A stretch of DNA of 28,888 bases from Chthoniobacteraceae bacterium (lineage in GTDB: Bacteria; Verrucomicrobiota; Verrucomicrobiia; Chthoniobacterales; Chthoniobacteraceae), in NCBI GenBank assembly GCA_031409335.1, contig JANNWY010000164.1, positions 1-28,888 of the forward strand, in the 5' to 3' direction. The position numbers were made by a program, and so were the translations under genes. This document shows, piece by piece, positions 3,174-28,404 of the stretch; positions within the stretch are counted from its first letter, which is position 1, and each line of letters begins with the position of its first letter. The notes beneath the pieces are model-generated. The model was not told where the DNA came from. It did no database searches and saw nothing but the letters and a program-made list of their open reading frames with translations.

Positions 3174-3884
3174 ATGGCCCTGATCGAACTCCGCAGCGTC
3201 ACCAAACGATACCTCGTCGGCGAACAGGAAATCCTCGCGCTCGACGGGATCACACTCGACATCGCGCAGGGCGAATTCGCCTCGATCATCGGCCCAAGCG
3301 GCAGCGGCAAAAGCACGCTCATGCACCTGCTCGGCTGCCTCGACACACCGACCAGCGGCACGATGCACATCGACGGCATCGACGTGAGCAAGGCGGGCGC
3401 GAATCGGCTGGCGGAATTGCGGAATCAAAAAATTGGTTTCGTGTTTCAAAGCTTCAACCTGCTGCCGAAATTCAACGTCCTGCAAAACGTCGAACTGCCG
3501 TTGATCTACTCCGGCGTCTCCGCGCGTGAGCGCCGCGAGCGCGCGCTCACCGCCATCGCCCGCGTCGAACTTTCCAACCGCATCAAAAACACGCCGCTCC
3601 AGCTCAGCGGCGGCCAGATGCAGCGCGTCGCCATCGCCCGCGCGCTCGTCAATCAGCCGAAGATCATTTTTGCCGACGAACCCACGGGCAACCTCGACTC
3701 CAAAACCGGCGCCACCATCCTCGGCTTGTTCCGGGAATTGAGCGAATCCGGCAGTACGATCGTGCTCGTCACCCACGATCAAAAGATCGCCGCGCAAACC
3801 CCGCGCCGCATCGAAATCGAAGACGGAAAGATCGTGGAAAGCGCCGCTCTCAACGCTCAACTCTCAACCCTCAACACCGCTTGA
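3174..3884 (+). CDS. ABC transporter ATP-binding protein (LolD/MacB type)
   Basis: Walker A GPSGSGKST, signature LSGGQMQRVAIARAL, Walker B FADEPTGNLD, VTHD. Confidence 0.95.
   Translation: MALIELRSVTKRYLVGEQEILALDGITLDIAQGEFASIIGPSGSGKSTLMHLLGCLDTPTSGTMHIDGIDVSKAGANRLAELRNQKIGFVFQSFNLLPKFNVLQNVELPLIYSGVSARERRERALTAIARVELSNRIKNTPLQLSGGQMQRVAIARALVNQPKIIFADEPTGNLDSKTGATILGLFRELSESGSTIVLVTHDQKIAAQTPRRIEIEDGKIVESAALNAQLSTLNTA
3847..3875 (+). repeat. Heptamer micro-array C(T/G/C)CTCAA x4 in the 3' end of the ABC ATPase gene
   Basis: CTCTCAA CGCTCAA CTCTCAA CCCTCAA C; encodes LNAQLSTLN. Confidence 0.85.
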
Positions 3885-5230
3885 ACCTCTGGCTCGGATT
3901 GCTCATCGGCCTGAAGGAAATCTGGGCCCACAAATTCCGCAGCTTCCTGACGATGCTCGGCGTCATCCTCGGCGTGGCATCGCTCCTCTCCATGTTTGCG
4001 CTCACCGCGGGCATGGCGAAAGGGATGCGCGAATACATGCAGCAAGTCGGCGGGATCGAGCGCGTCAGCCTCATCACGCAGGATGTCCCGCCGCATCAGG
4101 AAGGCATCGGGGAAATCTCGCCGGGGCGCACCGTGGCCGATGCCGAAGCCATCGCGAGATCGTCGCCGCTCGTCGCTTACGTCACTCCCGTCGCGCAACT
4201 ACCCGCCGCGGTTCAGCGCGCGGGCAATACCTTTCGCAGCGAGATCAACGGCTGCTGGCCGGACTTCGTGCCGATCAACAAACACGTCATTGCGACGGGG
4301 CGAAACCTCTGCGCGCTCGATCTCGAAATGGGCCTGCGCGTGTGCGTCGTCGGACGGCTCGTCGTCGAAAAGCTCTGGCCCGAACGACCCAAGTATGACC
4401 CGCTCGGTGAGACCATCAAAGTCAACGACCGTCCGTTCAAAATCGTCGGCGTGTTTGAGTATTACGAACGGGACGAGGACAAGCGCAAACGCGAACTCGG
4501 CGTGGCGAAGGCGAAGGAACCATCGCGCGAATCACGGCCGCCGAGATCGAGCGGCGGAATGCGCGGCTGGAATCCTTACGACCGCAAGAATCAGACGATC
4601 ATCATGCCGATCACCACGATGTTTTGGGAGTTCAAGTCCGCGAACCTCGTCGGCACCGTCGATACCGGCCCGCAGTACAAACTCGACTCGCTCAATTTTC
4701 AGATTGCCGACATCGCGCGGTTTGACGAGGCGCTCGATCAAGTCCGCAACATCGTGCTGACCACCCATCGCGGCATCGAAGACTTCGGCTTTGACACCAG
4801 GCAGGACTGGTTTGACACGATCGAAAAAAGCATCAGCAACACGCGCGTGAGCTTCGGTTTCATCGCCGGCATCTCCCTGCTCGTCGGCGGGATCGGCATC
4901 ACGAACATCATGCTCGCCAGCATCACCGAGCGCATCCGCGAGATCGGCGTGCGGCGCGCGATCGGCGCGAAAGGACGCGACATTTTTATTCAGATCGTCG
5001 TCGAAAGCACCGTGATCGGCTTGATCGGCGGTCTCTTCGGCCTCGTGGCAAGCAATGGCTTTTTGCGAATCATCACCTTCTTCTCACCTGCAGAAAACGC
5101 GCCGGTCGTTGATCTCAATTCCGTCCTGATCAGCTTCTGCTTCGCGGTCGCGATCGGCCTCGTCAGCGGCCTTTACCCGGCATGGAAAGCCAGCCGCCTC
5201 GATCCCATCGAGGCGCTGCGTTACGGCTGA
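3881..5230 (+). CDS. MacB/FtsX-family ABC permease
   Basis: RSFLTMLGVILGV, GGIGITNIMLASITERIREIGVRRAIGA, PAWKASRLDPIEALRY. TTG start overlaps the ATPase stop. Confidence 0.93.
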   Translation: MNLWLGLLIGLKEIWAHKFRSFLTMLGVILGVASLLSMFALTAGMAKGMREYMQQVGGIERVSLITQDVPPHQEGIGEISPGRTVADAEAIARSSPLVAYVTPVAQLPAAVQRAGNTFRSEINGCWPDFVPINKHVIATGRNLCALDLEMGLRVCVVGRLVVEKLWPERPKYDPLGETIKVNDRPFKIVGVFEYYERDEDKRKRELGVAKAKEPSRESRPPRSSGGMRGWNPYDRKNQTIIMPITTMFWEFKSANLVGTVDTGPQYKLDSLNFQIADIARFDEALDQVRNIVLTTHRGIEDFGFDTRQDWFDTIEKSISNTRVSFGFIAGISLLVGGIGITNIMLASITERIREIGVRRAIGAKGRDIFIQIVVESTVIGLIGGLFGLVASNGFLRIITFFSPAENAPVVDLNSVLISFCFAVAIGLVSGLYPAWKASRLDPIEALRYG

Positions 5231-5249
5231 ATCTCCATCGCACCGCGAA

Positions 5250-5939
5250 CTAACGCCGCGCCTTTTCCGCCACCGGAAATTCCGCCAGCAACTGCCGCGA
5301 CACGACGCTCGCGAGGGCGTCGAAATCTGCGCGAACCAGACGCGGCTTTTCGACGCAATCCCGCCAGAGCCGGGCACCCGCGGAAGTCGCCGCGGCGTCC
5401 TTGCGCCAAAGCGTGCCGCCGGAACGATCGCGCAGCCGCGCGGTGACCGCGATCGAGGCGCGGCAGAGGAGATCGCGATTGTCGGCGGACTTGAGCCCGA
5501 TCTCGCGCAGTTCGAGTTCGAGCACCGCGTCCGGATTGGAATTGGTCAACGCGAACAGCCGGCGGCGCGAGATTTCCTGCTCCGTGCGATTCGCGACGAG
5601 CGCGAGCGGATCCGCGCCCGCATCACTCAAGAGCCGGAGCGCCGTGGGCGAAAGCTTTGCCTCCCTCGCAGGCCGCGAGATATCGACGACATCCACCGCA
5701 AGCCCCACGAGTCCGCCCACGACCCCGAGATACCCGAGCGCGTAGCCCGCACCGTGTCTCGCGACGCGTCCGGCCACACGACCGCCGGTGGAAGTCGGCG
5801 GCGCGCTCGGAGCGTATGTCACCGCGACGCTCTGGACCCCTGCGAGCTTGCTGCGATTCGCCGGGGTTTGCGTGGCACAGCCGCCCATCGCGATTGCGAG
5901 CGCGAGCGGAATGAGGATTGAGAGGTGATGGAAGCGCAT
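5250..5939 (-). CDS. Hypothetical lipoprotein
   Basis: Signal peptide with lipobox-like MGGC, Gly-rich hydrophobic segment, alpha/beta C-terminal domain. Confidence 0.7.
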   Translation of the reverse strand: MRFHHLSILIPLALAIAMGGCATQTPANRSKLAGVQSVAVTYAPSAPPTSTGGRVAGRVARHGAGYALGYLGVVGGLVGLAVDVVDISRPAREAKLSPTALRLLSDAGADPLALVANRTEQEISRRRLFALTNSNPDAVLELELREIGLKSADNRDLLCRASIAVTARLRDRSGGTLWRKDAAATSAGARLWRDCVEKPRLVRADFDALASVVSRQLLAEFPVAEKARR

Positions 5940-6026
5940 GGTAATATTCGCGGGCGAACGACAAATGTAGGCCGAGGAAACCCCGTGCGCCGGGCTGCGG
6001 CAAGCGTTTCCTCACCGCCCGCTGAT

Positions 6027-7355
6027 CTACGACACACCCGTCGCGACGAGCGCGGGCAGCGCGATGACTTCGCCCTCGCGCGCTGCCTCCACCCGCATCG
6101 AGCTTCCCGCCGCCTTTGCCAGCGCGCGCGCATGCACCACCATGCTGGAAATCACGCGGTCGTCGTGCGCCGGATCGTGGTGGAAAAGGTAGAGCCGCCG
6201 CACCTTCGCACTCGCCGCGAGCGCGACCACATCATCGACGCAGCCATGCCCCCAGCCAATATGCGCGGCGTATTCCCTGGCGTCATATTGGGCATCGAGG
6301 ATGAGCACGTCCGCCTCGCGAATGAATTCCGCGATGTCGCCTTCCATCGTGGACGGCACATGGTTGGCGGAATCGCCCGCCTTTTTTGAGACCGTCTCAT
6401 TGTCTGGCATATATACGATCACCCCGCCACTCGTGTGAAAACGGTAGCCGACGCAGACCCCGGGATGATTCGTAAAACACGCCTCGATCGGGATGGAGCC
6501 GATTCGAAACTGCATTTCCTTCAGTTCTTCGATCTCGATGTTTCCCGGCATCTGATCGAGCGCGAGCGGGAAATACGGACTCTCCATCTGCCCCGCGAGC
6601 GTCGTGCGCAGGCCCTCGCTCGCGCCTTCGTATCCGAGAATGCGCAGGCGGCTGCTCGGGTCGTACGCAGGCAAGAAAAACGGGAATCCCTGGATGTGAT
6701 CCCAATGCGCGTGAGTGATGAGCAGCGTGAGATTGAGCGGTGCCCCATCCGCCTCCGCGGCGAGCGCCAGCCCGAGCGGGCGGATGCCGGAACCCGCATC
6801 GCAAATGATGTGCTCGCCATCCGCGCGCAGTTCGACGCAGGAAGTATTGCCTCCGAAAAAACTCGTCCCTTCACCCGGCGCCGGAATCGATCCGCGCACG
6901 CCCCAAAATTTTAACATCGCCCCCGTATTCCACGCTGGCGTGCTGCGCAGCGTGCCGTCGCCGCGTTCTTGGTGGTTGTTCGCCTCGGGGAGCACCCGCG
7001 CGATGGCGTCCTTCAGGGCGGAAAACTCGATCGGCTTTACCAGATAGTCGTCCGCGCCTGCCTCCTCGGCGCTTTTCCGATCCGCCGCATAGTCGCGCCC
7101 GGTGACGACGATGATTTTCGTATGCCGCAGCTCGAGATGTTCGCGCACCGCACGGCACACCTGGTAGCCATTCACGCGCGGCATCAGAAGGTCGCACAGG
7201 ATGACATCCGGGCGATGCTGCACGGCGAGTTGCAGGCCGCATTCGCCATCCTCCGCCTCGAGTACGCGCCAGTCGTTCCGCCGGAGCAGTTCGGCAGCCG
7301 GCGCGCGGCAGATTTCGTCGTCGTCGATCAGGAGGATGGTCTTCATCCAGTGCAT
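6027..7355 (-). CDS. Response-regulator receiver fused to an MBL-fold metallo-hydrolase (RNase Z / phosphodiesterase-like)
   Basis: REC domain: ILLIDDD, CDLLMP, YLVKP. MBL domain: WGVRGSIP, GGNTSC, DAGSG, THAHWDHIQG, FHHDP. Confidence 0.9.
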   Translation of the reverse strand: MHWMKTILLIDDDEICRAPAAELLRRNDWRVLEAEDGECGLQLAVQHRPDVILCDLLMPRVNGYQVCRAVREHLELRHTKIIVVTGRDYAADRKSAEEAGADDYLVKPIEFSALKDAIARVLPEANNHQERGDGTLRSTPAWNTGAMLKFWGVRGSIPAPGEGTSFFGGNTSCVELRADGEHIICDAGSGIRPLGLALAAEADGAPLNLTLLITHAHWDHIQGFPFFLPAYDPSSRLRILGYEGASEGLRTTLAGQMESPYFPLALDQMPGNIEIEELKEMQFRIGSIPIEACFTNHPGVCVGYRFHTSGGVIVYMPDNETVSKKAGDSANHVPSTMEGDIAEFIREADVLILDAQYDAREYAAHIGWGHGCVDDVVALAASAKVRRLYLFHHDPAHDDRVISSMVVHARALAKAAGSSMRVEAAREGEVIALPALVATGVS

Positions 7356-7428
7356 GTGAGTCTTTCAGACATCATTTGAAATACAAGCGCGCCCCGTGCC
7401 GCACACGAGGAGACGTGTCGCGAGGGAC

Positions 7429-7458
7429 TTGCGAGTGGTCTTCCATCTCGATTATCCT
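7429..7458 (+). promoter_or_regulatory. Candidate sigma70 promoter (TTGCGA-18-TATCCT), 6 nt before the ATG at 7465
   Basis: Visual match to the -35/-10 consensus. Confidence 0.4.
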
Positions 7459-7464
7459 GCGCGA

Positions 7465-7902
7465 ATGCACGTAAAAAACTTATGCAGTCCCTATGCCCAG
7501 TGCGGCGGCATCTTTTATTTCGCTCGAATGATCGACAAAATCCGGCTGCACGCCGCCGGGCAACTCCCGATCGAGTATCAGTCGAATCTCGGCGGCGGGT
7601 TCGATGAACGCTGCCTCCACTTTCTGTGGATCGAATACGCCCCGCTCGTCGAGCGCGTGAAGGCGGGCGGCACCGACGAGGAAATTCTGGACTGGACGTT
7701 TAATCAGGGCCGCAAACCCTCCGCTGAAGAGATCGAGATTTGGAATGATTTCATGCGCAAACGCGGCTGGAACGACGAGTCATCAGACCGCGTCGCCCAG
7801 CGGAAACGCGAAAGCAACTTTTCCGATCGCGACGACATCCAGACCTTCTTCGACTACATCGACGCCGACGAGGGCCGCGATCCACGCGAGCGCGCAAAGT
7901 AG
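7465..7902 (+). CDS. DUF5069-like protein
   Basis: LCSPY..GGIFYFARMIDKIRLHAAGQLP..Y; FD.IDADEGR tail. ATG 7465 preferred over GTG 7396. Confidence 0.75.
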   Translation: MHVKNLCSPYAQCGGIFYFARMIDKIRLHAAGQLPIEYQSNLGGGFDERCLHFLWIEYAPLVERVKAGGTDEEILDWTFNQGRKPSAEEIEIWNDFMRKRGWNDESSDRVAQRKRESNFSDRDDIQTFFDYIDADEGRDPRERAK

Positions 7903-7924
7903 GGAAAAAAGATGGATGGCGCGC

Positions 7925-8293
7925 TCAGTCCGCGCAGCCGCAATCCGGCCCGCAGCCCGCACCCATCACCACGCCCTCGACTGCGATGCCCTGAAACTCG
8001 AGTTGCTCGTGGATCACATTCAGGAAATCGCGCACGGCTTCGGTCGGCGGAGCGGCGCATTCCAGCCGCAGCCGCGCGCGCTTTCCCGCGAATCCGGGAT
8101 AAGCCTCCACCATCTCGCCATCGAGCACGAACGACACATAGGCATTGAACTTCTCCTGAAGTTGAAAGAGCTGCCGCTCCGAGCCATCCCACTGCCGCCG
8201 CTCGACCATCGTCAGGATCACTTCATCCTTCACCGTGTCGTGGACGATTGCGTCGATGACGTGCGCTTGCTCGACGCCACCCGGCTGCTTCAT
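7925..8293 (-). CDS. Small conserved hypothetical protein (DUF6572-like) with a Cys-rich tail CGPDCGC
   Basis: GVEQAHVID...W....QLQEKFNAYVSFVLDGEM. The ATG at 8293 overlaps the galM stop (ATGA). Confidence 0.65.
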   Translation of the reverse strand: MKQPGGVEQAHVIDAIVHDTVKDEVILTMVERRQWDGSERQLFQLQEKFNAYVSFVLDGEMVEAYPGFAGKRARLRLECAAPPTEAVRDFLNVIHEQLEFQGIAVEGVVMGAGCGPDCGCAD

Positions 8294-9411
8294 TTCGCGG
8301 AGAACTCGTAAACCGTCGTGCTGCGAAAAGTCTCGCCGGGACGCAGCGTGGTCGTCGGAAATTCCGGGCGATTTGGCGAGTCCGGGTAGTGCTGCGTTTC
8401 GAGGCACAAGCCATAGTGCTTCTGATAAGCCTTCCCGCCTTTGCCGATCACCGAGCTATTGAGGTAGTTGCCGGTGTAAAACTGGACGCCCGGTTCCGTC
8501 GTCGAGACTTTCATCACGCGCCCGCTCTTTGGCTCGCGCACTTCCGCGGCGGGAGTCAGCGCACCGGCTTTCGCTCCCTCGATCACATAGTTGTGATCAT
8601 ACCCACCCGCGACCTTCGCAAAGTCTTTCCCGACCGCTTTCGCCGTTGTGAAATCCATCGCGCCACCCGCGACCGCTTCGATTTTCCCAGTCGGAATACT
8701 CGTGTCATCGACCGCCGTGAATTTCGCCGCATGTAGCGTCAGCTCATGTTCCAAAATGTCGCCCGCACCCGCACCCGCGAGATTCCAATACGCATGGTTC
8801 GTGAGATTCACGACCGTCGGTTTGTCCGTCGTCGCTTCATAGTCGAGCCTTAGTTCATTCTTATCCGTGAGCGTATAAGTGATCGCGACCTTTAACGTGC
8901 CGGGGTAGCCTTCCTCACCGTCCGCGCTCGTGTAGGAAAAGCGCACGCCACTTGCCACCGCCTCACCCTTCCAATTCCGCATATCAAAGCCCTTCAAGCC
9001 ACCGTGCAAATGATTCGGCCCATTGTTCGTCGCGAGCTTGTAAGTCTTCCCATCTAGCGTGAACGCCCCTTTCGCGATGCGGTTCGCATACCGCCCCGTC
9101 GTCGTGCCGAAATACGGGTGGCGCGTCAGGTAGCCATCCAGCTTGTCAAAGCCGAGCGTCACATCCGCCAGCGTCCCCTCGCGATCCGGCGCGAGCATAT
9201 CGACGAGCCCTGCTCCCCACGTCATCACCCGCGCACGCAGGCCATTGGAATTTGAAATGGTGTAGATTTCGACAGCCTCGCCGTCGCTCGTTTTGCCGAA
9301 GTTTTCTTTTTGCACAGTGGGTTTTCCCGCGACCGCTTTGTCCGCGTAGGCGTTCTCCGCAAAAACCGCGGCGGACAACGCGATGGCAAAGGTCTTAAGT
9401 TGGAGGTTCAT
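8290..9411 (-). CDS. galM: Aldose 1-epimerase (galactose mutarotase) with signal peptide
   Basis: GRYANRI, NHLHGG, NLTNHAYWNL, GGYDHN, GVQFYTGN, CLETQHYPD. Start chosen at MNLQLK. Confidence 0.93.
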   Translation of the reverse strand: MNLQLKTFAIALSAAVFAENAYADKAVAGKPTVQKENFGKTSDGEAVEIYTISNSNGLRARVMTWGAGLVDMLAPDREGTLADVTLGFDKLDGYLTRHPYFGTTTGRYANRIAKGAFTLDGKTYKLATNNGPNHLHGGLKGFDMRNWKGEAVASGVRFSYTSADGEEGYPGTLKVAITYTLTDKNELRLDYEATTDKPTVVNLTNHAYWNLAGAGAGDILEHELTLHAAKFTAVDDTSIPTGKIEAVAGGAMDFTTAKAVGKDFAKVAGGYDHNYVIEGAKAGALTPAAEVREPKSGRVMKVSTTEPGVQFYTGNYLNSSVIGKGGKAYQKHYGLCLETQHYPDSPNRPEFPTTTLRPGETFRSTTVYEFSAK

Positions 9412-9550
9412 TGGGCGCGGTGTTGTGATTGGAAAAAATCGGGCGCGCCGCATTCCGTCAACTGCAAACGGCTGCGCGCGATCAACCCGTCGATCCCATC
9501 TTGCCCGTGCCACGAATCACCCGTTGCGATGAGCGGATGCGGGGCCGTGT

Positions 9551-10450
9551 TCATACTTGCGCGGGCGGCGATTGCGCCAGCTTCAGCGCGATGGCTCCTG
9601 CGACTGCGAGCAGACCGCCGGCCACAGCGCGGCGCGTGGGGCGCGTGCCTTCGATGAGCCATGCGAGGATGATCGTGACGACGGGCGAAGTCGCCACGAT
9701 CGGCAGCACCACTCCGCTCGGCGTCGTGGCGAGCGCCCATTGGAAACAGCCGACGCCGATGGCTGGGCCAGCGAGCGCGTTCACCAATGTCCACGGTGCG
9801 GCTGCGCGCCACTGCGGAGCGGCATCCGTCTTTTGGCGGCGTAAAAAAGCAAACGCAATCAGCGTGATGAGCAGACCGCCGAGGATGCGCTGATACGCGG
9901 CGGTGCCGCCGTCGATGGGGAAATGCGCATGCATCGCGACCTCGTTCGCCTTGCGACTGATGACGGCGCCCATCCCCTGCCCCATCGCGGAACCGACACC
10001 CGCGAGGACGCCGATCCAGAAAACGCGCCGCGCGATTTTCACCCCGCGATCCGGCGCGAGCGCGACCGCGACTCCCGCTAGAATAACCACCGCACACCAA
10101 AGCTCCGCCGCCTTCAGCGTCGTGCCAAGCCATGCCCACTCGACGATGGCCGCGAGCGGGGCCGCGAGGCATTGCGTGATGAGGATCGCCAGCCGCGGAC
10201 CGAGCCGCGGCAGCGCGGCAAAGAGCGCCATGTCGCCGAGTCCGAATCCGACGCAGCCGCCGAAGAAAAACCACCACCGCGCCGGTCCATCAAATCCACT
10301 GCCAAAGCCGTGCGCCCAGACCGAAAGGAAAACCGTCGCCAGCACGATGCGCGAAAGATTCGCCCGTGTCCCGCCAAGCAGCTTCGCCGACCGCGCCGCG
10401 AAAATCACGGAAAGCGAAAACAGAATCGTCGTGAGAAACGAGGCGAACAT
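9551..10450 (-). CDS. DMT/EamA-family transporter
   Basis: About 10 hydrophobic segments in two repeats; GFGLGD, GPAIGV. Confidence 0.88.
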   Translation of the reverse strand: MFASFLTTILFSLSVIFAARSAKLLGGTRANLSRIVLATVFLSVWAHGFGSGFDGPARWWFFFGGCVGFGLGDMALFAALPRLGPRLAILITQCLAAPLAAIVEWAWLGTTLKAAELWCAVVILAGVAVALAPDRGVKIARRVFWIGVLAGVGSAMGQGMGAVISRKANEVAMHAHFPIDGGTAAYQRILGGLLITLIAFAFLRRQKTDAAPQWRAAAPWTLVNALAGPAIGVGCFQWALATTPSGVVLPIVATSPVVTIILAWLIEGTRPTRRAVAGGLLAVAGAIALKLAQSPPAQV

Positions 10451-10552
10451 GCGGCGGGCGCGCAGTAAGGCGCAGGCCCGCCGGGCTGTCGAGCGCCCTG
10501 GCTTAGTGGAGCAGCGTCATCAGCGAGCGGCGCGCTGGCTGCCGATCCTGCG

Positions 10553-12567: not shown

Positions 12568-13233
12568 ATGTCGATGCTTGTTGAGAACCCGACCCCGCCT
12601 GCGCGTCGCGTGCGGAAACCGCTGCCGCTTGAAAACGGCGACAGGCTCACGTCCGCCGAGTTTCTCCGGCGATACGAGGCGATGCCGGAAATCAACAAAG
12701 CCGAGCTCATCGAAGGTCACGTTCATATGGCTCCACCACTCCGCGCCGACGCGCACTCCGAACCCGACATGTTCATTCATCTTTGGCTGGGTTATTACGC
12801 CTCCTGTCAACGGAATGTAAAAGCCTACGCGAATCCCACATTGGTTCTCGATGCCGACAATACGCCGCAGCCCGACAGCGTCCTCTGCACCGCGCCGCGG
12901 CGCGGCAGCCATGTTTGGCTGAATGAAAAAGGCTACCTTTGCGGGCGGCCTGAACTCGTCTGCGAAGTCGCCGCGAGCAGCGCTTCCATCGACTTGCACG
13001 ACAAGCTGAATGCCTACCGTCGCAACGGGATCGCGGAGTATCTCGTGTGGGTGGTCGCCGAGCGGCGCATCCGGTGGTTTGCGCTCGTCGAGCAGGAATA
13101 CGTCGAGATGAAGGAACGCGCCGGAGTCGTCGTGAGCCGCGTTTTTCCAAAGCTCGCGCTGGACGTGAAAGCCGCGCTCAAACTCGACGGCGCGAAAGTC
13201 CTCGCGACTCTGCGCCGCCATCTCGGCAAGTAA
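12568..13233 (+). CDS. Uma2-family (PDDEXK) endonuclease
   Basis: PLENGDRL...KAELIEGHV, QPD, PELVCEVAASS, DLHDK...Y.RNGIAEYLVW. Confidence 0.92.
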   Translation: MSMLVENPTPPARRVRKPLPLENGDRLTSAEFLRRYEAMPEINKAELIEGHVHMAPPLRADAHSEPDMFIHLWLGYYASCQRNVKAYANPTLVLDADNTPQPDSVLCTAPRRGSHVWLNEKGYLCGRPELVCEVAASSASIDLHDKLNAYRRNGIAEYLVWVVAERRIRWFALVEQEYVEMKERAGVVVSRVFPKLALDVKAALKLDGAKVLATLRRHLGK

Positions 13234-13235
13234 CG

Positions 13236-14069
13236 TCAGCCGCCGAAGGCCTGGTAACGCCGAATCCCGCGCGTCCACATGACGTGCGCGATGAGCCACA
13301 CGACCGCCAGCCATCCGGCTTGGATCGCGAGACCTTCCCACATCGCCGCGCCGCGGATGCGTTCCATCGCGATCTGCGCGGGGAAGTAGAGTTCGTAGGT
13401 AAAGGGCGACCATTTGACGAAGCCCTGCATCCAGGCCGGTAGAATATCGAGCGGGAAGACGTGGCCGCTCAGGAAATACTCGAAGGAGTAGAGGATGAAA
13501 ACAATCGTGGAGATTTCCAGAATCCAGAACGCGAGCATCGCCGTGGCGTAGGCGATGAAGAACTGGATGCCCGCAGCCATGAGCGTGGAAAGCGCGAGCA
13601 CGGGCCACGTGACCGCGTGCTCGGGCAGCGCGATGTGTTCCCGAAAAACGACCGCGAGAATGACGATGGGGATGAAAACGACGGCGATGTAGAGCAGCCG
13701 GTAGCTGAGGTAGGCGGTGATGCGGTAGAGCAGGTAGTTCATCGGTTTGATGAGATACGCGCTGATTTTTCCATCGCGGATTTCCCCCGCGATCTGCCAT
13801 TCGTCCTCGGTGGGGGTGATGAGGTTGTCGATGAAGACCGTGACCATGAAGTAGTAGACCATGGACGAGTAATCGTAGCCCGAGATGGGCTTGCCGCTCG
13901 CGTCGAAGACGGCTCGCCAGATGAAGATCATGCCGACGAGCGGGACGATGCCGAAGATGGTGCGGAGGAGAAAATTCCAGCGATAGACGAAGGTGTTTTG
14001 GAGGCCGATGTCGAAGAGCTTCCAGTATTTGGGGAAGCGGCGAGTTGAGAGCTGGGAGTTGGGAGCCAC
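13236..14069 (-). CDS. ABC-2 family (DUF990-like) transporter permease
   Basis: YRWNF, EIRDGKISAYLIKP, LSGHVFPLDILP, GIRRYQAFGG. Confidence 0.88.
   Translation of the reverse strand: MAPNSQLSTRRFPKYWKLFDIGLQNTFVYRWNFLLRTIFGIVPLVGMIFIWRAVFDASGKPISGYDYSSMVYYFMVTVFIDNLITPTEDEWQIAGEIRDGKISAYLIKPMNYLLYRITAYLSYRLLYIAVVFIPIVILAVVFREHIALPEHAVTWPVLALSTLMAAGIQFFIAYATAMLAFWILEISTIVFILYSFEYFLSGHVFPLDILPAWMQGFVKWSPFTYELYFPAQIAMERIRGAAMWEGLAIQAGWLAVVWLIAHVMWTRGIRRYQAFGG
14042..14065 (-). repeat. Heptamer micro-array CTC(C/T)CA(A/G) x3 at the 5' end of the ABC-2 permease
   Basis: Sense strand CTCCCAA CTCCCAG CTCTCAA CTC; encodes PNSQLST. Confidence 0.7.
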
Positions 14070-14105: not shown

Positions 14106-14363
14106 TCAACCGACTACGTGCCGGATGTCGAAGATGTGAATGAGTTTTCTGGAATGGTCGGTCAGATAGCCAATGGCGAAGGTGCCGACTTTCATCCAAA
14201 ACAGTGAACGACCACTCACATCACTCCCGTAAAAATCGGCGCTGCGCCGAGGATCTTCGGCGAGGGATTCGATCGCGTGGAGAAGGCGGGTCGTCTGCGC
14301 ATCCTCGCAAGCCAGCGCGCCCAGCACGGCGGCCCGGTGGAGCACGTAATCGTAGCGGGGCAT
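14106..14363 (-). CDS. Putative RelE/ParE-fold toxin
   Basis: 85 aa; 'IESLAEDP' helix followed by beta strands 'KVGTFAIGY..D...KLIHIFDIRH'. Abuts the upstream small acidic ORF (TAG-ATG). Confidence 0.6.
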   Translation of the reverse strand: MPRYDYVLHRAAVLGALACEDAQTTRLLHAIESLAEDPRRSADFYGSDVSGRSLFWMKVGTFAIGYLTDHSRKLIHIFDIRHVVG

Positions 14364-14576
14364 CTAAGGCTGGCTGATCCCGCGCTGGCGGAGGGTCGCG
14401 GCAAACTCTTCGCGGCTGACGTGGTTTCCCTGTTCCATTTCGGCGATGCGCTCCGTCATCTCGCTGCGGAAAGCGGGATCGTTGTTCAATTCGATCATCT
14501 TCAACCGCCACGCGAGGGCCTGGCGTTCTTCGGGGGTCCAGCGGGCAACTTCGTCGAAAACTTCGGCTACGCTCAT
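14364..14576 (-). CDS. Putative antitoxin (addiction-module component type)
   Basis: 70 aa acidic helical protein: MSVAEV..EV....PEERQAL...RIAEMEQG..VSREE. Confidence 0.65.
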   Translation of the reverse strand: MSVAEVFDEVARWTPEERQALAWRLKMIELNNDPAFRSEMTERIAEMEQGNHVSREEFAATLRQRGISQP

Positions 14577-14617: not shown

Positions 14618-15565
14618 TTAGTCCAATTCCGCAGCCAGACGGATGGCGGCGATCATCGAATCGGGACGGGCGAGTTTATGACCGGCGATCTCGAAGGCGG
14701 TACCGTGGTCGGGCGAGGTCCGGGGGAAGGGGAGGCCGAGGGTGACGTTCACGCCTTCGTCGAAGGCGTGCAGTTTTAGCGGGATGAGGCCCTGGTCGTG
14801 ATACATGCAGAGCACGCCGTCGAATTCGCCCGCGACGGCGCGATTGAAGACGGTGTCGGGGGAGATGGGGCCGAGGAATTGCGGATTGCGGATTGCGGAT
14901 TGCGGATTGTTCAGTGCGTGGATCGCAGGTGAAATGATTTCGATTTCTTCGCGGCCCAGCGTGCCGCTTTCGCCGGCGTGCGGATTGAGCCCGGCGATGG
15001 CGATGCGCGGCTCGCGACGGAGCCGTGTGGTGAGAAAGGTGTGGAGCAGTTTTCCCACGCGTACGACCTCGTCCGCGGAAAGCAGCGCGGCGACATCCTT
15101 CAGCGGCACGTGCGCGGTGACGAGCGCCACGGTAAGCGCGCCGCCGGTGAGGCACATTGCGAAATTTTCCACGCCCGCACGCTTCGCATAAAACTCCGTC
15201 TGCCCCGGAAACTCGAAGCCGACGGCCTGCATCCGCGCTTTGTGAATCGGCCCCGTCACCACCGCCGCGATCTCGCCGCGCCGGAGCAATTCCACCGATT
15301 CCTCCAGCGCCGCGCGCGCGGCCCGCGCGGTGTCCGGCGTGGGCTCGCCTGCGACCGCATTCCCCCGCTCGCCAATGACGCGATAAGAAAATGCCGGGTC
15401 CAGTTTTCCCGAAGCCAGCGCGGCATCCACGATCTCCGGCCCGATGCCAGCAGGATCGCCAAGCGTGATGCCGATCGTACGGAGTCGAAGGTCGAGGGTC
15501 GAAGGTCGAAGGGGCTCGGATGCCGCGGCCTTCGATCTTCGGCCTTCGGCTTTCGATTTCATCAA
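14618..15565 (-). CDS. pdxA: 4-hydroxythreonine-4-phosphate dehydrogenase
   Basis: ITLGDPAGIGPEI, TGPIHK, GLNPHAGE, MYHDQGLIP, RTSPDHGTAF; downstream of surA. Confidence 0.96.
   Translation of the reverse strand: MMKSKAEGRRSKAAASEPLRPSTLDLRLRTIGITLGDPAGIGPEIVDAALASGKLDPAFSYRVIGERGNAVAGEPTPDTARAARAALEESVELLRRGEIAAVVTGPIHKARMQAVGFEFPGQTEFYAKRAGVENFAMCLTGGALTVALVTAHVPLKDVAALLSADEVVRVGKLLHTFLTTRLRREPRIAIAGLNPHAGESGTLGREEIEIISPAIHALNNPQSAIRNPQFLGPISPDTVFNRAVAGEFDGVLCMYHDQGLIPLKLHAFDEGVNVTLGLPFPRTSPDHGTAFEIAGHKLARPDSMIAAIRLAAELD
14878..14909. repeat. Perfect heptamer array (ATTGCGG)4.5 inside pdxA
   Basis: Direct reading; encodes NPQSAIRNPQF on the minus strand. Confidence 0.95.
15484..15560. repeat. 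Inverted pair of heptamer arrays (GTCGAAG)4 / (CTTCGRY)4 in the 5' end of pdxA
   Basis: Arms at 15484-15511 and 15530-15560; encode KSKAEGRRSK and LRPSTLDLR. Confidence 0.9.
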
Positions 15566-18190: not shown

Positions 18191-18196
18191 CGGTGG

Positions 18197-18367
18197 GAAA
18201 TTCCAAGTTCCAAATTCCAAGCTCCAAATAAATTTCAGTGAAGGAAAGGCTGCAAATTTCAATCGCTCGGAGCCCGCGATGGGCGCGGCACTTCGTTTTG
18301 AAATTTTCCCCGGCTTTCCGCCCTTTGAAATTTATTTGGAGCTTGGATTTTGGCTCTTGGAATTTTC
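18197..18367. repeat. About 170-bp hairpin element with (T/C)TCCAA(A/G) heptamer arms
   Basis: Perfect 22-bp inverted core TCCAAGCTCCAAATAAATTTCA (18216-18237) / TGAAATTTATTTGGAGCTTGGA (18326-18347), plus an inner AAATTTCAA/TTGAAATTT pair. Confidence 0.92.
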
Positions 18368-18368
18368 T

Positions 18369-19217: not shown

Positions 19218-19226
19218 CGCGGGCGG

Positions 19227-19670: not shown

Positions 19671-19676
19671 CGCCGG

Positions 19677-20153
19677 TCAGCGTCGCGCGAAGTCGCCCAT
19701 GACCTGCGCCATCCGCATCGCCACACGCGCGGCTTCGGTGCCACGATTGATCTCACTTTCCAGACAGCGCGCACGCGCCTGATCCTCATTTTGCAGCAGC
19801 AAAACCTCGTGAATGATCGGCAGCCGGTTGTTCAGCGCGATCCGCTGCAGCGATTCCGTGACCGCCCGCGCCACCATTTCCGCGTGCGCCGTTTCGCCCT
19901 GAATGATCACCCCAAGCGCAATGACACCGTCGATGCCGCCCTTTGCCGCGACCTCCTGGACGACGAGCGGAATCTCGAATGCGCCCGGCACTTCATAGAC
20001 ATGCACATTCGTGTTCGGCGCGATCACTTCGAGTTCGCGTTTCGTGTGATCCACGAGCCCCTGCACATAGCCGTGATGATACTGGCTCGCGACGATGGCG
20101 AAGGATTTGCGCGGGCCAAAGCCACGAGGGCGTGAAGGAAGAATGGATGCCAT
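19677..20153 (-). CDS. ribH: 6,7-dimethyl-8-ribityllumazine synthase
   Basis: VPGAFEIP, IALGVIIQGETAH, NRGTEAA; ribH-nusB synteny. Confidence 0.95.
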   Translation of the reverse strand: MASILPSRPRGFGPRKSFAIVASQYHHGYVQGLVDHTKRELEVIAPNTNVHVYEVPGAFEIPLVVQEVAAKGGIDGVIALGVIIQGETAHAEMVARAVTESLQRIALNNRLPIIHEVLLLQNEDQARARCLESEINRGTEAARVAMRMAQVMGDFARR

Positions 20154-20203
20154 GATGCGGGAGCGCGGATGTTAATGGCACCCCCCGACCGCGCAACAAG
20201 TAA

Positions 20204-20310
20204 TCCTGCTCTTGATCCTGCTCCTGCTCTTGATCTTGATCTTGATCCCCTCCCCCAAAGCGCACCTCAACGCTGAGGATCAAGATCAAGATCAGGGATC
20301 AGGAGCAGGA
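20204..20310. repeat. Inverted pair of hexamer arrays (TCYTGM)7 / (KCARGA)5 upstream of ribH
   Basis: Arms at 20204-20245 and about 20277-20310, with an inner CCTCA-ACGC-TGAGG hairpin. Confidence 0.9.
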
Positions 20311-20394
20311 GGGGGAATGAATCGGCGGCGCGCTTTACAAACGCGCAACCGCGGCGACGGCTTGGCGGGAGCCTCGCTCCCATCGCGCGGTGGA

Positions 20395-22818: not shown

Positions 22819-22994
22819 CGCAACTGTGTAGCGATGAAGTTTTAGCCGCGCAATATCGCAACACCGCACGAGGGACGATCCCGCCGCCGGCATCGTCCGT
22901 CAAAAGCCTTGTCACAAATACACCGCTTCACAGAGCCCGGTGCTCAAGCCCGGATTGCCTTCGGCGTTGAACAGGTTGGCGAGATGTCTTCCGC

Positions 22995-23224
22995 TTACCA
23001 GCCTGTTGAAACACTCATTCCAGCGCCGTAGGCGCGCCATGTTTATAGAATATGTCCGAACAAAAGTGGATAGCTCCGTAGAAGCGGCACAACCCCCGAA
23101 TCAAGCGTACATGCCGCTCCTACGGAGCTTTGCCGGTTCCCTTTCCGGATTCTTACAGACATGGCGTGTCTACGGCGCTGGAGAGCCACCAATGCCGCGC
23201 CCAAGTTTTTCAACAGGCCGTTAA
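22995..23224. mobile_element. About 230-bp nested palindromic MITE/REP-like element
   Basis: Outer IR GCCTGTTGAAA (23001-23011) / TTTCAACAGGC (23208-23218). Middle IR 23019-23042 / 23159-23182 (22/24). Inner IR 23072-23089 / 23112-23129 (17/18). Confidence 0.8.
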
Positions 23225-24612
23225 GGGCACGGGCGCGCGGCAAGATACTGCGCGGCAAGCTCGCGGCGGCTGATTTTGCCGCGCTCGTTCGCCGCGATTT
23301 CCGGCACGATCCAGACATCGCGCGGCACCTGCCACGCGCTGAGGCGTCCATGGCAAAAACGCAGCACGCCCGCCGCGTCGATCCCCTCACCCGCCACACA
23401 CGCGATCGCCTCCTCGCCGCGCAGCGCGCACGGCACGCCGAAAACCACTGCCTGCCGAACGCCGGGAAATTCCAGCAAGCGCTGCTCGACCGAGGCCGGA
23501 CTGAGTTTGCGTCCCGCAACGTTAATGACATCCGACGCGCGCCCGACGATCTTCAGCCCGCGCTTTGACCACTCGACCAAATCCGCCGGGACGAAACATC
23601 CACCGTTCAGCGCCTCATCTTCCTCCGGGAAATAACCATCGCCAGCAGCCGCGCTGCGCACCGCGATGCGCCCATCGTGCAGCGGCGAAAGATTCACGCC
23701 TACCATCGCAGTTCCCACGAACCCCTCTTCGTAGCGCGCCTCCGCAGTCGCATCATACGCGATCCCACCGCACTCCGAGGCTCCGTAAAAAGTGTAAATC
23801 TTCGCGCCAAATCGCGCCGTGAATTTTTCACCCACCGCCGGTGGCAGCGGCGCACCCGCCGACACGCACAGTCGCAGCCGCGGCAGCGCGGGTGCGTTTT
23901 CCAGTTCGGCGAGTTTTTGGAAAAAGACCGGGATGCCGGGAAACACCGTCGCGCCACTCGCCGCGAGGCCATCGAGAATCGCGCGCGGCAGGCGGTCATC
24001 CGTCGCGACGAGGGGAACGCCGCGGCAAATCAGCGGCGTGAGCAAATTGCTAAAGCCGTAACTGTGCGAAAACGGGATCGCGCCGAAATTCAGATCGTCG
24101 GGGCCGAAACCCATCGTCGCGCAAATCTGATCGCAATCCGCGAGCAACTGAGTCGCCCGAAAACGAATCGCCCGCGGCGTGGAAGTCGTGCCGCTCGTCA
24201 GCTTCAACAACTCCGCGTCAGGAGATTTCTGGTTTCCGATTTCCGATTTCCGATTTACCGCCATCTCACTGCCGTCCATTTCGACGATCGCGCTGACCCT
24301 GCACGTCTCCACTGCCGCGGCGAGTTCGCTGCCTTCCATGTGCCGACCCAGCGGAAGCGGGATCAATTCACGCCGAAACAAAGCCAGCAGAAGCGCCGGC
24401 CAGGACGGCAGATTTCCGATCCGAATCGCCACGACGGCGCGGGATCTGAATGGGTGGAAAAGCGGTTCGACCGCGCGCGATTCTGCTTCGATGTCGGCAA
24501 AAGTCCGCAGTGTTCCGCCAGCGGCATCGAGCAGGGCGGGCCGGTTTCCGAACTTCGCCAGCGTCCCCGCCCACGCCGCGAGCAGCACATTTTCAGCGAT
24601 TCCGGAAGGCAC
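23221..24612 (-). CDS. Class I adenylate-forming (AMP-binding) enzyme, acyl-CoA-synthetase-like
   Basis: [10 protein letters not shown]-loop, [37 protein letters not shown]. Confidence 0.9.
24224..24256. repeat. Heptamer array (GATTTCC)~4.7 inside the AMP-binding gene
   Basis: GATTTCT GGTTTCC GATTTCC GATTTCC GATTT; encodes [11 protein letters not shown] on the minus strand. Confidence 0.88.
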
Positions 24613-24704
24613 GGTGCGGAGGGAAAATGGTCACGGGAAATAGTCGGACTTTTTGGTTGCGGCTCGGGATATGCCCGTTACCCTCCTACCCCTTTTCCAA
24701 AGCC

Positions 24705-24932
24705 ATGAAAGCAGATATTCATCCCGACTACACCGAGACCACCATCAGTTGCGCCTGCGGCACCGTTTACCACACCCGCTCCACCCGCCGCGAAATCAAG
24801 GTCGGCATTTGCGCGGCCTGCCATCCGTTCTTCACGGGCGAACAAAAGTTCGTCGATACCGCAGGCCGCATCGAGAAATTCTCGCGCCGTTACGCAGGCG
24901 TCAAAGTGCGCGCGGACAAAAAAGGCGCTTAG
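24705..24932 (+). CDS. rpmE: 50S ribosomal protein L31 (Zn-binding type)
   Basis: [36 protein letters not shown]. Confidence 0.97.
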
Positions 24933-24951
24933 TTACTTCCGGCAGTTTTCG

Positions 24952-24991
24952 AAACGGTGAAGCCCGCTTGCGGCTTCACCGTTTTGTTTTT
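24952..24991 (+). terminator. Intrinsic terminator after rpmE
   Basis: 13-bp stem AAACGGTGAAGCC / GGCTTCACCGTTT followed by TGTTTTT. Confidence 0.8.
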
Positions 24992-25049
24992 GCCGAAGGC
25001 CGAAAGTCGAAGGTCGCAGGACCGTTACTTTCGACCCTCGACCTTCGAC
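24992..25049. repeat. Inverted pair of heptamer arrays (GYCGAAG)4 / (YYTCGAC)3 just upstream of prfA
   Basis: Arms at 24992-25019 and 25029-25049; ends 9 nt before the ATG at 25059. Confidence 0.88.
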
Positions 25050-25058
25050 ACACATCCC

Positions 25059-26138
25059 ATGGACTTTGCCCCACTCCTCAGCCGCAACGCCGACCGCTTC
25101 CGCGAACTCGAGGCCGAGATCGGGTCGGGAAATCTCTACGCCGATCCGCGCCGCGCCCGCGATCTCCTGCGCGAACACACGCGCCTGAAAGCGTTGCTCG
25201 CCGATTGGGACAATCTCCAAAAATCCCGCGCCGACCTCGCGAGCAATCAGCAACTCGCCAACGGTGCCGACGCGGAAATGGCCGAGCTGGCCTCGATGGA
25301 AATCCCTGATCTCGAAAAGAACATCGCTGCGCTGGAGGAGAAAGTGCAGTTCGCCCTGCTCCCGCCCGATCCGAATGAAGAGCGCGACGCGATCGTGGAA
25401 ATCCGCGCCGGCACCGGTGGCGATGAAGCCGGACTTTTCGCCGCCGATCTTTACCGGATGTACACCCGCTTCGCCGACACCCACGGTTTTAAGATCGAAA
25501 ACCTCGAATCCAGCGCGGGCGAACTAGGCGGGTTTAAGGAAGTCATCTTCAAAGTCACCGGCGGCCAGGTTTTCCGCACGCTGAAATACGAAAGCGGCGT
25601 GCATCGCGTGCAGCGCGTCCCCGCCACGGAAACGCAGGGCCGCATCCACACCAGCGCCGCCACCGTCGCGGTGCTGCCAGAAGCCGAGGAAGTCGATCTC
25701 GAACTCAAGCCCGACGAAATCCGCGTGGAAGTCTGCCGTGCCGGCGGACCCGGCGGACAGGGCGTGAACACCACCGATTCCGCCGTGCAAGTGATGCACA
25801 TCCCGACCGGCATGATCGTGCGCTGCCAGGACGGACGTTCGCAGCAGAAGAACAAGGAAAAGGCGCTCAACATCCTGCGCTCTCGCCTGCTCGAAAAAAT
25901 GCAGCGCGAGGAAGCCGAAAAATACGCCGCGCATCGCAAAAGCCAGATCGGCAGCGGCGACCGCAGCGAAAAGATCCGCACTTACAACTACCCGCAAAAC
26001 CGCGTCACCGACCACCGCATCAACCTGACGCTCTACAGCCTCGACCGCTTCGTGGAAGGCAGCATCGGCGAAATGATCCACGCGCTGCAAGCCGCGGACA
26101 TGCAGGAGCGGCTGGCGGAGGCCAGCGTCACAACGTAA
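25059..26138 (+). CDS. prfA: Peptide chain release factor 1
   Basis: EIRAGTGGDEA, VQRVPATE (PxT motif), GPGGQGVN, RSEKIRTYNYPQ. Start at MDFAPL. Confidence 0.97.
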   Translation: MDFAPLLSRNADRFRELEAEIGSGNLYADPRRARDLLREHTRLKALLADWDNLQKSRADLASNQQLANGADAEMAELASMEIPDLEKNIAALEEKVQFALLPPDPNEERDAIVEIRAGTGGDEAGLFAADLYRMYTRFADTHGFKIENLESSAGELGGFKEVIFKVTGGQVFRTLKYESGVHRVQRVPATETQGRIHTSAATVAVLPEAEEVDLELKPDEIRVEVCRAGGPGGQGVNTTDSAVQVMHIPTGMIVRCQDGRSQQKNKEKALNILRSRLLEKMQREEAEKYAAHRKSQIGSGDRSEKIRTYNYPQNRVTDHRINLTLYSLDRFVEGSIGEMIHALQAADMQERLAEASVTT

Positions 26139-27474
26139 CTGGATTCCCGATTGCTTCGTCTGCGCGCGCCAAAAGGAAACATTTTGGATCGTATTTGCGT
26201 GCAAGCCGCAGGTAGTCGGACGCCTTTTCGCGATCACCCAAACGCGCGTTAGCAACCGCCAGGAAACAGGCGTTTTGCGCCTTGCCGTTGAGAGCCGTTG
26301 TCTCTTCAAACGACTTCGAGAGCAATGGAATCGCATCTTCAATCCGACCCATCGACAGGAGCACAGTCCCCCGTGTGCCTTGAACGGAAGACATCCAAGG
26401 CAGCAGGGCAAGCGCTTCTGTCGAGTATCGATCCGCCTCTTCGAGCAGTTCCTGGCCACCCAAAAGCGCATCCGCGTAGGCAATGTTGTTCAGCACCAAT
26501 GCGCGCATTACCGGAGCGACGCCTTCTTTCGCAAGACCCGGAAGCATCCGATTGCGCGCCATCACCAGATCTCCGACGTCGAGCATGTTGCACGTGTGAA
26601 GCGAATCGAGCGTTTCGTTGTCCGGGTATGTTGCAAGACCTTCACCAAGCCAGCGCCGGGCACCCTGAAAGTCGTTGCGTTCGCGACATTCCATTCCTTC
26701 CATCGCAAAGAGCATCGCATGGCTTTTCGCAGCATCACCGGATCCCACAAAGACTGCCCGAAAAAGAAGTTTTCCGTCGGATGCCAGATTCCCAAGGTCG
26801 GTTTGAATCATGCGCGGCCATAAATTAACCAGCAGCACCACTACGTTTGCGTAAAAGAAAATCTGCAGGGGAACGAACCCCTCGCCCAGCGCAGTAAGAT
26901 CCCAAACGATTCCGGCAGGCTTCGCAAGGAGAGCACCGCTGGCCAGCGCCAAATTGACCGCCGGGCCTCCTGCCACGAAAAGAAATTGTCGCCAGCGATA
27001 CCCAGCCACACCGCGATGCGCGGCGATGGCAACGCCCCCGAAAAGGAGCATCTTGAATTCCGCATCGATCCCGAACAGCCGCGTCCGAAACCAGGGTCGC
27101 CCCGTGCCAACGATGATTTTGAAAACACGGAGTCCCTGAATTCGCGCGACAAACGCATGTCCGAGTTCGTGCGGGACAATCGTGAGCACGTTGAAGAGGT
27201 CGAAGCAGGCTGCGTTAACAAGCAGCCAGCCGATCCGAGTCTGCGGCGCGAACCAAGCGATAGCAATGCCGCCAAATAGAGTGGCGAGCCAGTTCGCAAT
27301 TCGCCAGCCAAAGCTGGAATGCTGCCTTTTCGTCCAGCACACGGGACAAAATTTGCGTGTCGCCGTGCGAAACGAGCGTCGCTGCCGGATAAAAACTCCG
27401 GGCAGGGCTGATTCGATCCCGCAAACGGAACACCGCGACGGAACAGTATCCGAGGATTGGGACGGTGATGGCAC
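26128..27474 (-). CDS. Site-2 (M50) membrane metalloprotease with N-terminal Zn-ribbon and C-terminal TPR-like repeats
   Basis: CSVC...CPVC, HELGH, AGGPAVN, NLWP...SDG, NNIAYAD...TRG.VL..MGR..DAI. Confidence 0.85.
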   Translation of the reverse strand: MPSPSQSSDTVPSRCSVCGIESALPGVFIRQRRSFRTATRKFCPVCWTKRQHSSFGWRIANWLATLFGGIAIAWFAPQTRIGWLLVNAACFDLFNVLTIVPHELGHAFVARIQGLRVFKIIVGTGRPWFRTRLFGIDAEFKMLLFGGVAIAAHRGVAGYRWRQFLFVAGGPAVNLALASGALLAKPAGIVWDLTALGEGFVPLQIFFYANVVVLLVNLWPRMIQTDLGNLASDGKLLFRAVFVGSGDAAKSHAMLFAMEGMECRERNDFQGARRWLGEGLATYPDNETLDSLHTCNMLDVGDLVMARNRMLPGLAKEGVAPVMRALVLNNIAYADALLGGQELLEEADRYSTEALALLPWMSSVQGTRGTVLLSMGRIEDAIPLLSKSFEETTALNGKAQNACFLAVANARLGDREKASDYLRLARKYDPKCFLLARADEAIGNPVTL

Positions 27475-27564
27475 AACGGCAAGGAGGACTTATTGCCTGC
27501 CGAACAATCAAGCTCCGAGTACCAATTGCGCTCAGAGACTGCGAACGTTAAAAGCAATGCCTCA

Positions 27565-28404
27565 ATGAAAACCGTGCTCGAAGTCATCCAGGCGACGACA
27601 CCTTATCTGCAGAAGAACGGGGTCGAGAGTCCGCGGCTGAATATCGAACATCTGCTCGCGCATGTGCTCGGGAAGAAGCGGATGGATTTGTACATGGAAT
27701 TCGACCGACCGCTCGAAGATCAAGAACTGGAGCCGCTTCGCGCGCTGGTGAAGCGGCGGGCGGCGGGGGAGCCGTTGCAGCATTTGCTCGGAACGGTGGA
27801 GTTTTTGGGGAAGACGTTTCTTTGCGACAAGCGGGCGCTGGTGCCGCGTCCGGAGACGGAGCAGCTTTGTGAATTGACGATTGCGGATTGCGGATTGCGG
27901 ATTGGCGGAGGGCGCGTGCTCGATGTGGGGACGGGGAGTGGCGTGATCGCGCTTTCGCTCGCGGCGGTGTGGCCGGAGGCGCGCGTGGAAGGCGTCGATA
28001 TTTCCGAAGAGGCGCTGGCGCTGGCGCGCGAAAACGCGGCCCGGCTCGGGCTTGCGGAACGCGTCACTTTTTCCAAAAGCGATCTGCTCGAAAACGTCGC
28101 GGGCGAGTTCCAGCTCATCGTCGCAAATCTTCCGTACATCGCCGCCGCTGAGATTCCCGCGCTCGCGCGCGAAGTGCGGCAAGATCCGATGATCGCGCTG
28201 ACGGATGGCGCGGATGGATTTTCGCTGATCAAGAGATTGATCGCCACCGCGCCGAAACGTTTGCGTGGACTGCTCGCGCTGGAGATCGGCCATGAGCAAT
28301 CCGCGCGCGTTTGCGAGATGCTGGCCGGGCACAATTTCCAAGACATTCGCCCGCTCGCCGACTACCAAGGTCGCCAACGTTTCGTCTTCGCAAAATATAG
28401 ATAA
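27565..28404 (+). CDS. prmC: Release factor glutamine methyltransferase
   Basis: RRAAGEPLQH, LVPRPETE, LDVGTGSG, ANLPYI, LEIG. Confidence 0.96.
   Translation: MKTVLEVIQATTPYLQKNGVESPRLNIEHLLAHVLGKKRMDLYMEFDRPLEDQELEPLRALVKRRAAGEPLQHLLGTVEFLGKTFLCDKRALVPRPETEQLCELTIADCGLRIGGGRVLDVGTGSGVIALSLAAVWPEARVEGVDISEEALALARENAARLGLAERVTFSKSDLLENVAGEFQLIVANLPYIAAAEIPALAREVRQDPMIALTDGADGFSLIKRLIATAPKRLRGLLALEIGHEQSARVCEMLAGHNFQDIRPLADYQGRQRFVFAKYR
27880..27904. repeat. Perfect heptamer array (ATTGCGG)3.5 inside prmC
   Basis: Direct reading; encodes IADCGLRI in the linker between the PRPETE helix and the SAM motif. Confidence 0.93.

Follow-up and report, generated by a model that had tools for sequence, protein, structure and literature searches.

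Heptamer repeats are over-represented in bacteria, an excess described as unexplained by Rehm et al. (2015; PMC4692102). Here, we describe such repeats in a contig of a Chthoniobacteraceae bacterium (Verrucomicrobiota; GenBank assembly GCA_031409335.1, contig JANNWY010000164.1, positions 1 to 28,888 of the forward strand); this whole stretch of 28,888 nucleotides is called the window. Its repeats are short arrays of mostly seven-nucleotide units ("arms") that stand alone or as inverted pairs. On balance, we favor the interpretation that these arms are kin to those flanking genes of the four-helix-bundle family TIGR02436, and that copying at the DNA level (recombination or conversion), filtered for reading frame, has spread them out of such cassettes.

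Among the closest described systems, the GGGAATC arrays of Xanthomonas are likewise dispersed, mostly intergenic heptamers with a modal number of four units and many inverted pairs, and their gene positions differ among related species (Rehm et al., 2015; PMC4692102). They consist of a single G-rich word, are read as a quadruplex motif, and lie between convergent genes in 16% of cases, whereas the arrays studied here comprise 38 word classes, are almost absent between convergent genes, include numerous solo arms within coding loops, and are linked to TIGR02436. The TAACTGA repeats of Beggiatoaceae also form runs of 2–6 heptamers near start codons, and their copies within open reading frames (ORFs) take the stop-free orientation, encoding one heptapeptide, but they are direct repeats of a single word at protein peripheries (MacGregor, 2015; PMC4679880). 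A term search of the text of that paper found none of the terms "four helix," "S23," and "intervening." In ORF-bearing intervening sequences (IVSs) of 23S rRNA, the four-helix-bundle gene for S23p lies between complementary ends with tandem heptamers; the TIGR02436/S23p family has no known function (PMC4990558). These IVSs sit in rRNA and are excised by RNase III, whereas all loci of the window are in or between protein genes, both cassettes and gene-less hairpins occur here among protein genes, solo arms are present, and a G-U pairing test gave no RNA-level signature.

Rickettsia palindromic elements (RPEs) occur in coding genes. Together with bacterial MITEs (miniature inverted-repeat transposable elements), they resemble the present elements in being gene-less hairpins of about 100–200 bp with empty and filled sites (PMC2229807). 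The gene-less hairpins here (100–115 nt) and the window pairs share with MITEs the terminal inverted repeats, a length below 200 bp, and non-coding content. They differ in having no TA ends or target-site duplication, no likeness over the full length of the copies, unconserved spacers, micro-arrays of many words, and replaced loop codons. Heptamer hairpins, repeats within ORFs, and one heptamer-flanked rRNA-IVS gene have thus already been published. In the main texts of the open-licence literature, we found no report of the link between repeat word and protein clade or of word switching within a slot. Nor did we find the heptamer-armed TIGR02436 cassettes described formally as a family.

Arms beside TIGR02436 genes

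The source genome (G000; 7.94 Mb, 326 contigs, 98% complete) holds eight TIGR02436 and four GxxExxY matches. By inspection, periodic arms, some of them degenerate, stand beside all eight TIGR02436 genes and at least one GxxExxY gene. The TIGR02436 family was present in 30 of the 41 genomes compared. We examined 98 loci, part of the matches listed; five had no profile match and four duplicate or partial loci were dropped, leaving 89 genes. A scored arm was found in 78 of these 89 (62 of period 7, 8 of period 6, 7 of period 8, and 1 of period 9), and the arrangement was inverted in 56 of the 63 genes with two arms of the same period. The preliminary description of the window, made from its letters alone, had looked to recurrent cargo between paired arms, and TIGR02436 genes occupy this position in G000 and its relatives.

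The arm word follows the protein tree. On a quick tree, the unit distance between nearest neighbors was 1.92, compared with 3.67 ± 0.14 after shuffling, and all eight genes labelled as hexamer-armed fell in one nine-member clade (support 100). The window words GTCGAAG, ATTGCGG, TCYTGM, and GTTGAG are also arm words of TIGR02436 cassettes, and GATTTCC and TTCCAAR match loosely. Dispersed GTCGAAG arrays were found in each of the three genomes that have a GTCGA-armed gene and in 3 of the 38 others. AATCCGC arrays were present in 9 of the 29 relatives carrying a TIGR02436 gene and in 1 of the 11 lacking one, a contrast too small to be decisive.

In two regions of G000, C143:1395-2700 and C289:35070-37119, four-helix-bundle genes precede a series of small ORFs split by long direct arrays of the AAAGCGG type, a layout resembling multi-gene cargo.

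Arrays in the window

All nine arrays given in the preliminary description were confirmed in place, and a tenth hairpin, missed there, lies directly downstream of prmC. The features are as follows.

3847..3875, + strand: solo degenerate arm of the CTCTCAA type, translated as the tail ALNAQLSTLNTA at the C-terminus of a MacB-type ABC ATPase (3174-3884)
14042..14065, − strand: solo degenerate arm, encoding APNSQLSTRR at the likely N-terminus of a membrane-protein ORF (13236-14069)
14878..14909, − strand: solo AATCCGC arm, encoding in-frame NNPQSAIRNPQ within a PdxA segment that varies
15484..15555, − strand: inverted pair of GTCGAAG at the junction of surA and pdxA, within the N-terminal reading frame of PdxA (z −3.9)
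18197..18367, − strand: TTCCAAR inverted pair, from the ftsY stop to just before the next start codon (z −7.4)
20204..20309, − strand: inverted pair of the hexamer TCYTGM upstream of ribH, adjoining a leader conserved in the congeners (z −6.4)
24224..24256, − strand: solo AAATCGG arm, encoding an in-frame 11-residue peptide in acyl-CoA ligase; the congeners have other words in this slot
24992..25049, + strand: GTCGAAG inverted pair between a terminator-like hairpin 3′ of rpmE and the prfA start (z −4.1)
27873..27904, + strand: solo ATTGCGG arm, encoding in-frame TIADCGLRIG in the linker ahead of the S-adenosylmethionine (SAM) motif of PrmC
28428..28552, + strand: tenth hairpin, with units of 9–10 nt, directly 3′ of prmC (z −6.0)

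The division of the nine into four inverted pairs and five solo arms was borne out. The four pairs had folding z values of −3.9 to −7.4 against dinucleotide shuffles, and in a partner search covering 1.5 kb on either side of each arm, three pairs scored 15.5–32.5, the prfA pair only 11, and the five solo arms ≤ 10. Two details were amended. The CTCTCAA arms at 3847 and 14042 are present but degenerate, with the Tandem Repeats Finder (TRF) consensus units CTCAACC and GAGTTGG; and the four pairs do stand at gene starts or junctions, but the pair at 15484 lies within the pdxA reading frame because no in-frame ATG, GTG, or TTG occurs downstream of it. The hosts and neighbors of the arrays are genes for the ABC ATPase, the membrane-protein ORF, pdxA, surA, ftsY, ribH, the acyl-CoA ligase, rpmE, prfA, and prmC. 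No part of the window matched Rfam. No RNA data set was listed as containing the stretch searched, a result that has no bearing on expression.

Contigs from four public runs of a single study, one of which may be the source of the assembly, cross the arrays at 14042, 15484, 18197, 24224, and 24992 with 0–1 differences, which rules out an assembly artefact for these five loci; among the matches listed, no run contig spans those at 14878, 20204, and 27880. The arm at 3847 was absent from the five related loci compared, and that at 14042 from the three related loci covering that gene end. The permease gene that follows the arm-bearing ATPase starts with a TTG at 3881, overlapping the ATPase stop, and the five related loci have four ATG and one GTG starts. 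The membrane-protein ORF at 13236-14069, which has no NCBIfam match, is presumably an ABC-2 permease.

Empty and filled alleles

We compared G000 with four genomes of the same genus (G001, G002, G003, and G004; the congeners). Empty alleles, on whose existence the preliminary description had relied, were found in these relatives at three junctions (rpmE-prfA, surA-pdxA, and ftsY) and in two protein loops (PrmC and PdxA). The rpmE-prfA junction measures 162 nt in G000 and 102–103 nt in all four congeners, with no duplication; contigs from the community show empty joints across it, and among the 29 of 30 loci covered, the same spot holds unrelated inserts in several other genera. The surA-pdxA hairpin is absent from G001 and G004. 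At the ftsY junction, G003 alone among the congeners shares the downstream gene; a short spacer precedes that gene there, and the hairpin is absent. The hexamer pair upstream of ribH has no clean empty allele because the relatives have other upstream genes.

Within proteins, the PrmC loop has 25 codons in G000 and 21 in all four congeners. It carries an arm in 2 of 30 loci, the other being ATTTCAG in G037, from a different family. The AATCCGC arm of PdxA is present in 3 of 29 loci (G000 and two others), in different phases; one further locus looks decayed, and the arm is absent from G001 and G004. It falls in a gapped segment of the alignment to PDB 6xmy, and the PrmC arm likewise falls in a gapped segment relative to a solved structure; in both cases the flanking motifs are intact.

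Loop codons replaced and words switched in place

Coding arms replace about as many loop codons as they add. The slot in the acyl-CoA ligase is 33 nt long in all five same-genus genomes, with the content AAATCGG in G000, AAATCTG in G003, CAATTGC in G002, a decayed arm in G001, and no arm in G004. The words of G002 and G003 recur at other loci in those same genomes, and in the G003 arm the sole unit that would yield an in-frame TGA is altered. The PrmC loop and three loops outside the window share this pattern: an Hsp70-like loop that in five genomes contains ATTGCGG (twice), ATTTCAG, ATTGCAG, or a decayed version, and two IspG-like loops that are empty or hold solo arms or entire in-frame hairpins of several words. 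The names of these proteins are our assumption from their motifs. At dispersed loci, words also differ between genomes as a whole: GAACGTC is pure in 24 of the 25 matches of G007, and GAACATC dominates in G000.

That coding arms mostly replace codons and change word in place points to the copying or conversion of arms more than to leftover cassette ends, the example offered in the preliminary description. We consider the arrays to be ordinary in kind and unusual in detail, a variant of known heptamer-repeat elements as judged by sequence comparison, which gives good evidence of in-place word replacement. A common WEKR-coding flank in unrelated genes was considered as a sign of donor-flank co-transfer and rejected, the flank being conserved in orthologues.

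A predicted protein of 1920 aa (G000 C52:14620-18790) contains four in-frame arms with four different words.

Arms and spacers of gene-less hairpins

In 16 complete hairpins, the arms were 95% alike, and the likeness of the spacer cores was 0.17, compared with 0.11 when shuffled. Variants were mirrored in the opposite arm in 2 cases and not mirrored in 22. No target-site duplication was found: 31 of 34 hairpins shared ≤ 2 nt (maximum 4). The arms have therefore been homogenised apart from the DNA they enclose, and simple copying of a single master element does not account for the gene-less hairpins.

In G000, the spacer of a GAACATC hairpin at C310:30028-30189 harbors a palindromic repeat of another kind.

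Genome-wide census and competing explanations

In G000, 302 period-7 arrays were detected, compared with 5.3 expected under a fifth-order Markov null; there were 174 of period 6 (0 under the null) and 15 of period 8 (5.3). In predicted coding sequences (CDSs), 75 period-7 arrays were found, compared with 2, 1, and 2 in three protein-preserving synonymous shuffles, which rules out a protein-level origin of period 7; the excess of period 6 in CDSs was weaker (41 compared with 13, 20, and 11). The array frequency thus exceeds the shuffled null, as the preliminary description had supposed, and a chance origin of arrays of the window type is excluded.

Grouped by word, the 238 stronger arrays make up 38 classes, with 139 arrays in the two largest (AACATCG, 96; AATCCGC, 43). 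AA or TT occurs in 37 of the 38 words, compared with 43% in the background. Arm length is nearly fixed by word family at 4.5–5.5 units: 73 of 120 GAACATC arms span 38–40 nt and 102 of the 120 begin at GAAC, 39 of 45 GATTGCG arms span 31–34 nt, and only 12 of the 238 arrays have ≥ 6 units. A tiny hairpin with a TGC loop stands just outside 42 of 117 GAACATC arms (background 0.7%), for example at C205:36662-36715, and also beside the C205 cassette.

These data bear on local replication slippage with fold-back template switching, a polymerase-intrinsic 7-nt process in which the four-helix-bundle genes would merely be carriers. Such a process would fit the lack of target duplication, the replaced target bases, the unrelated spacers, and the recurrence of period 7 across many words, and the variation of unit number in one IVS arm has been published (PMC4990558). 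However, the arbitrary words, broad lengths, and free phase of slippage-type simple sequence repeats were not observed: the words are few, and length and phase are fixed. The word has switched genome-wide, as with GAACGTC in G007 and GAACATC in G000, and variants are not mirrored between arms, unlike those in fresh fold-back copies. Stepwise slippage would also hardly swap a whole word in place, because a single-unit change shifts the frame of prmC or pdxA. We therefore regard slippage as unlikely.

The positions of the arms bear on a second explanation. Paired arms make up 124 of the 238 (96 intergenic) and solo arms 114 (52 within CDSs); these class counts are approximate because genes were called with a home-made hexamer model (5522 genes, 86% coding). 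Of the paired arms, 73 lie between tandem genes, and of 133 classed intergenic arms only 2 lie between convergent genes, although convergent gaps make up 13% of intergenic bases. Together with the stable folds of the pairs and the excision by RNase III of an IVS with a heptamer-containing arm (PMC4990558), this distribution would suit pairs kept as RNA stems that RNase III processes or that control translation at gene junctions. Such stems would be the mRNA counterpart of the rRNA IVS, with solo arms as by-products. In contrast, the sense-strand mismatches show no excess of G-U over A-C in either the genomic hairpins (43 vs 63; p = 0.06, in the wrong direction) or the 76 cassettes (58 vs 74), so selection for RNA wobble pairs is unsupported, and the 52 solo arms within CDSs are left unexplained. 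As the explanation of the arrays, RNA stems are distinctly improbable; an RNA-stem role for the pairs can coexist with the copying of arms from cassettes.

It is very improbable that a reverse transcriptase (RT), aided by an Avd-like pentamer, uses cassette RNA to write arms at new sites. The case for it is one of analogy: Avd is a pentameric relative of the fold whose five protomers all bind an RNA stem-loop (bioRxiv 10.1101/2023.10.23.563531), and G000 has two RT genes. However, no arm is reported near either, the window has no RT, and the arrays do not fit the linked RT, template and variable repeats, and adenine-specific change of diversity-generating retroelements. Adenine mutagenesis of that type was rejected, since the substitutions are not adenine-wide: the A-to-G excess is confined to one position (67 of 110 changes) that matches the fixed word of another genome, and no bias toward adenine appears when the other families are pooled (A 0.035, G 0.053). 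Templated repeat addition had been put forward in the preliminary description; with an RT as its agent, it found no support.

One of the two RT genes (C149:34216-36050) stands next to an Avd-like ORF and a template-repeat-like ORF, and this locus is probably a diversity-generating retroelement. The other (C32:15862-17013) resembles a group II intron.

Proposed spread of arms from TIGR02436 cassettes

If the arms spread from TIGR02436 cassettes, cassette-derived arms of about five units would act as donors for copies elsewhere in the genome, landing as gene-less hairpins at gene junctions or as solo arms written over protein loops that tolerate them. The copying would be an event of the recombination or gene-conversion type from other arms, with neither transposase nor target duplication, and selection would afterwards retain in-frame, stop-free versions alone. 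As the preliminary description had noted for its own arms, the stop-free orientation is preferred: it is used by eight of the nine coding arms in which the other orientation contains a stop.

A further step would give the protein a role. The homologue 2RLD has five chains and a homopentamer is reported in the literature (PMC4990558); the assignment as a pentamer comes from these chains and from papers. A pentamer might recognize some five units, with each subunit taking one, which would fix both arm length and word. That four-helix-bundle pentamers read specific words in this way and drive a transposase-free (re)writing into junctions and coding loops is a tentative suggestion that we consider doubtful.

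Several points weigh against the proposed spread or its protein step. For AATCCGC, the commonest coding word (45 arms), and for GTCGAAG, no cognate gene was found in the 98%-complete G000, where only the hexamer and, loosely, GATTTCC have one. In G007, the AATCCGC-armed gene is the sole locus with an AATCCGC array, and G003 (80% complete) has arms and no TIGR02436 gene that we could find. Six of the 63 two-armed cassettes score as direct. Some slots are old, because G008 and G004 carry decayed arms. The PdxA arms were probably gained independently, but this is unproven: the tree, on which the three armed loci take three changes, has weak support (AU p = 0.0507). The covariation of word and clade is expected from plain co-inheritance and is not evidence of binding, and the pentamer fit is loose because arm length varies by family (4.5 vs 5.5 units, with longer hexamer arms). 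The compared genomes are related and not independent. Finally, no depositing enzyme was identified, and the TIGR02436 protein has no known catalytic activity; the dedicated depositing mechanism of the preliminary description is thus without its enzyme, and its remark that the window holds no candidate was correct. Overall, that interpretation is partly supported.

If pentamers do read the words and drive the rewriting, the long-noted excess of heptamer repeats in bacteria would be traced to a protein, and essential enzymes would have a recurrent supply of new peptides for their loops. The link between word and clade, the fixed arm length, and the in-place switching make the repeat excess and the function of the protein testable together, and housekeeping enzymes repeatedly acquire loop peptides from repeat DNA.

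Other genes of the window

Two small ORFs of 70 and 85 aa (14106-14576, − strand), flanked by pdxA and the permease-like gene, are absent from G001 and G004 and have no Pfam match; in appearance they resemble an antitoxin–toxin pair. A gene for a putative endonuclease of the Uma2 family (PF05685) lies at 12610-13233 (+ strand), with no adjoining arms.

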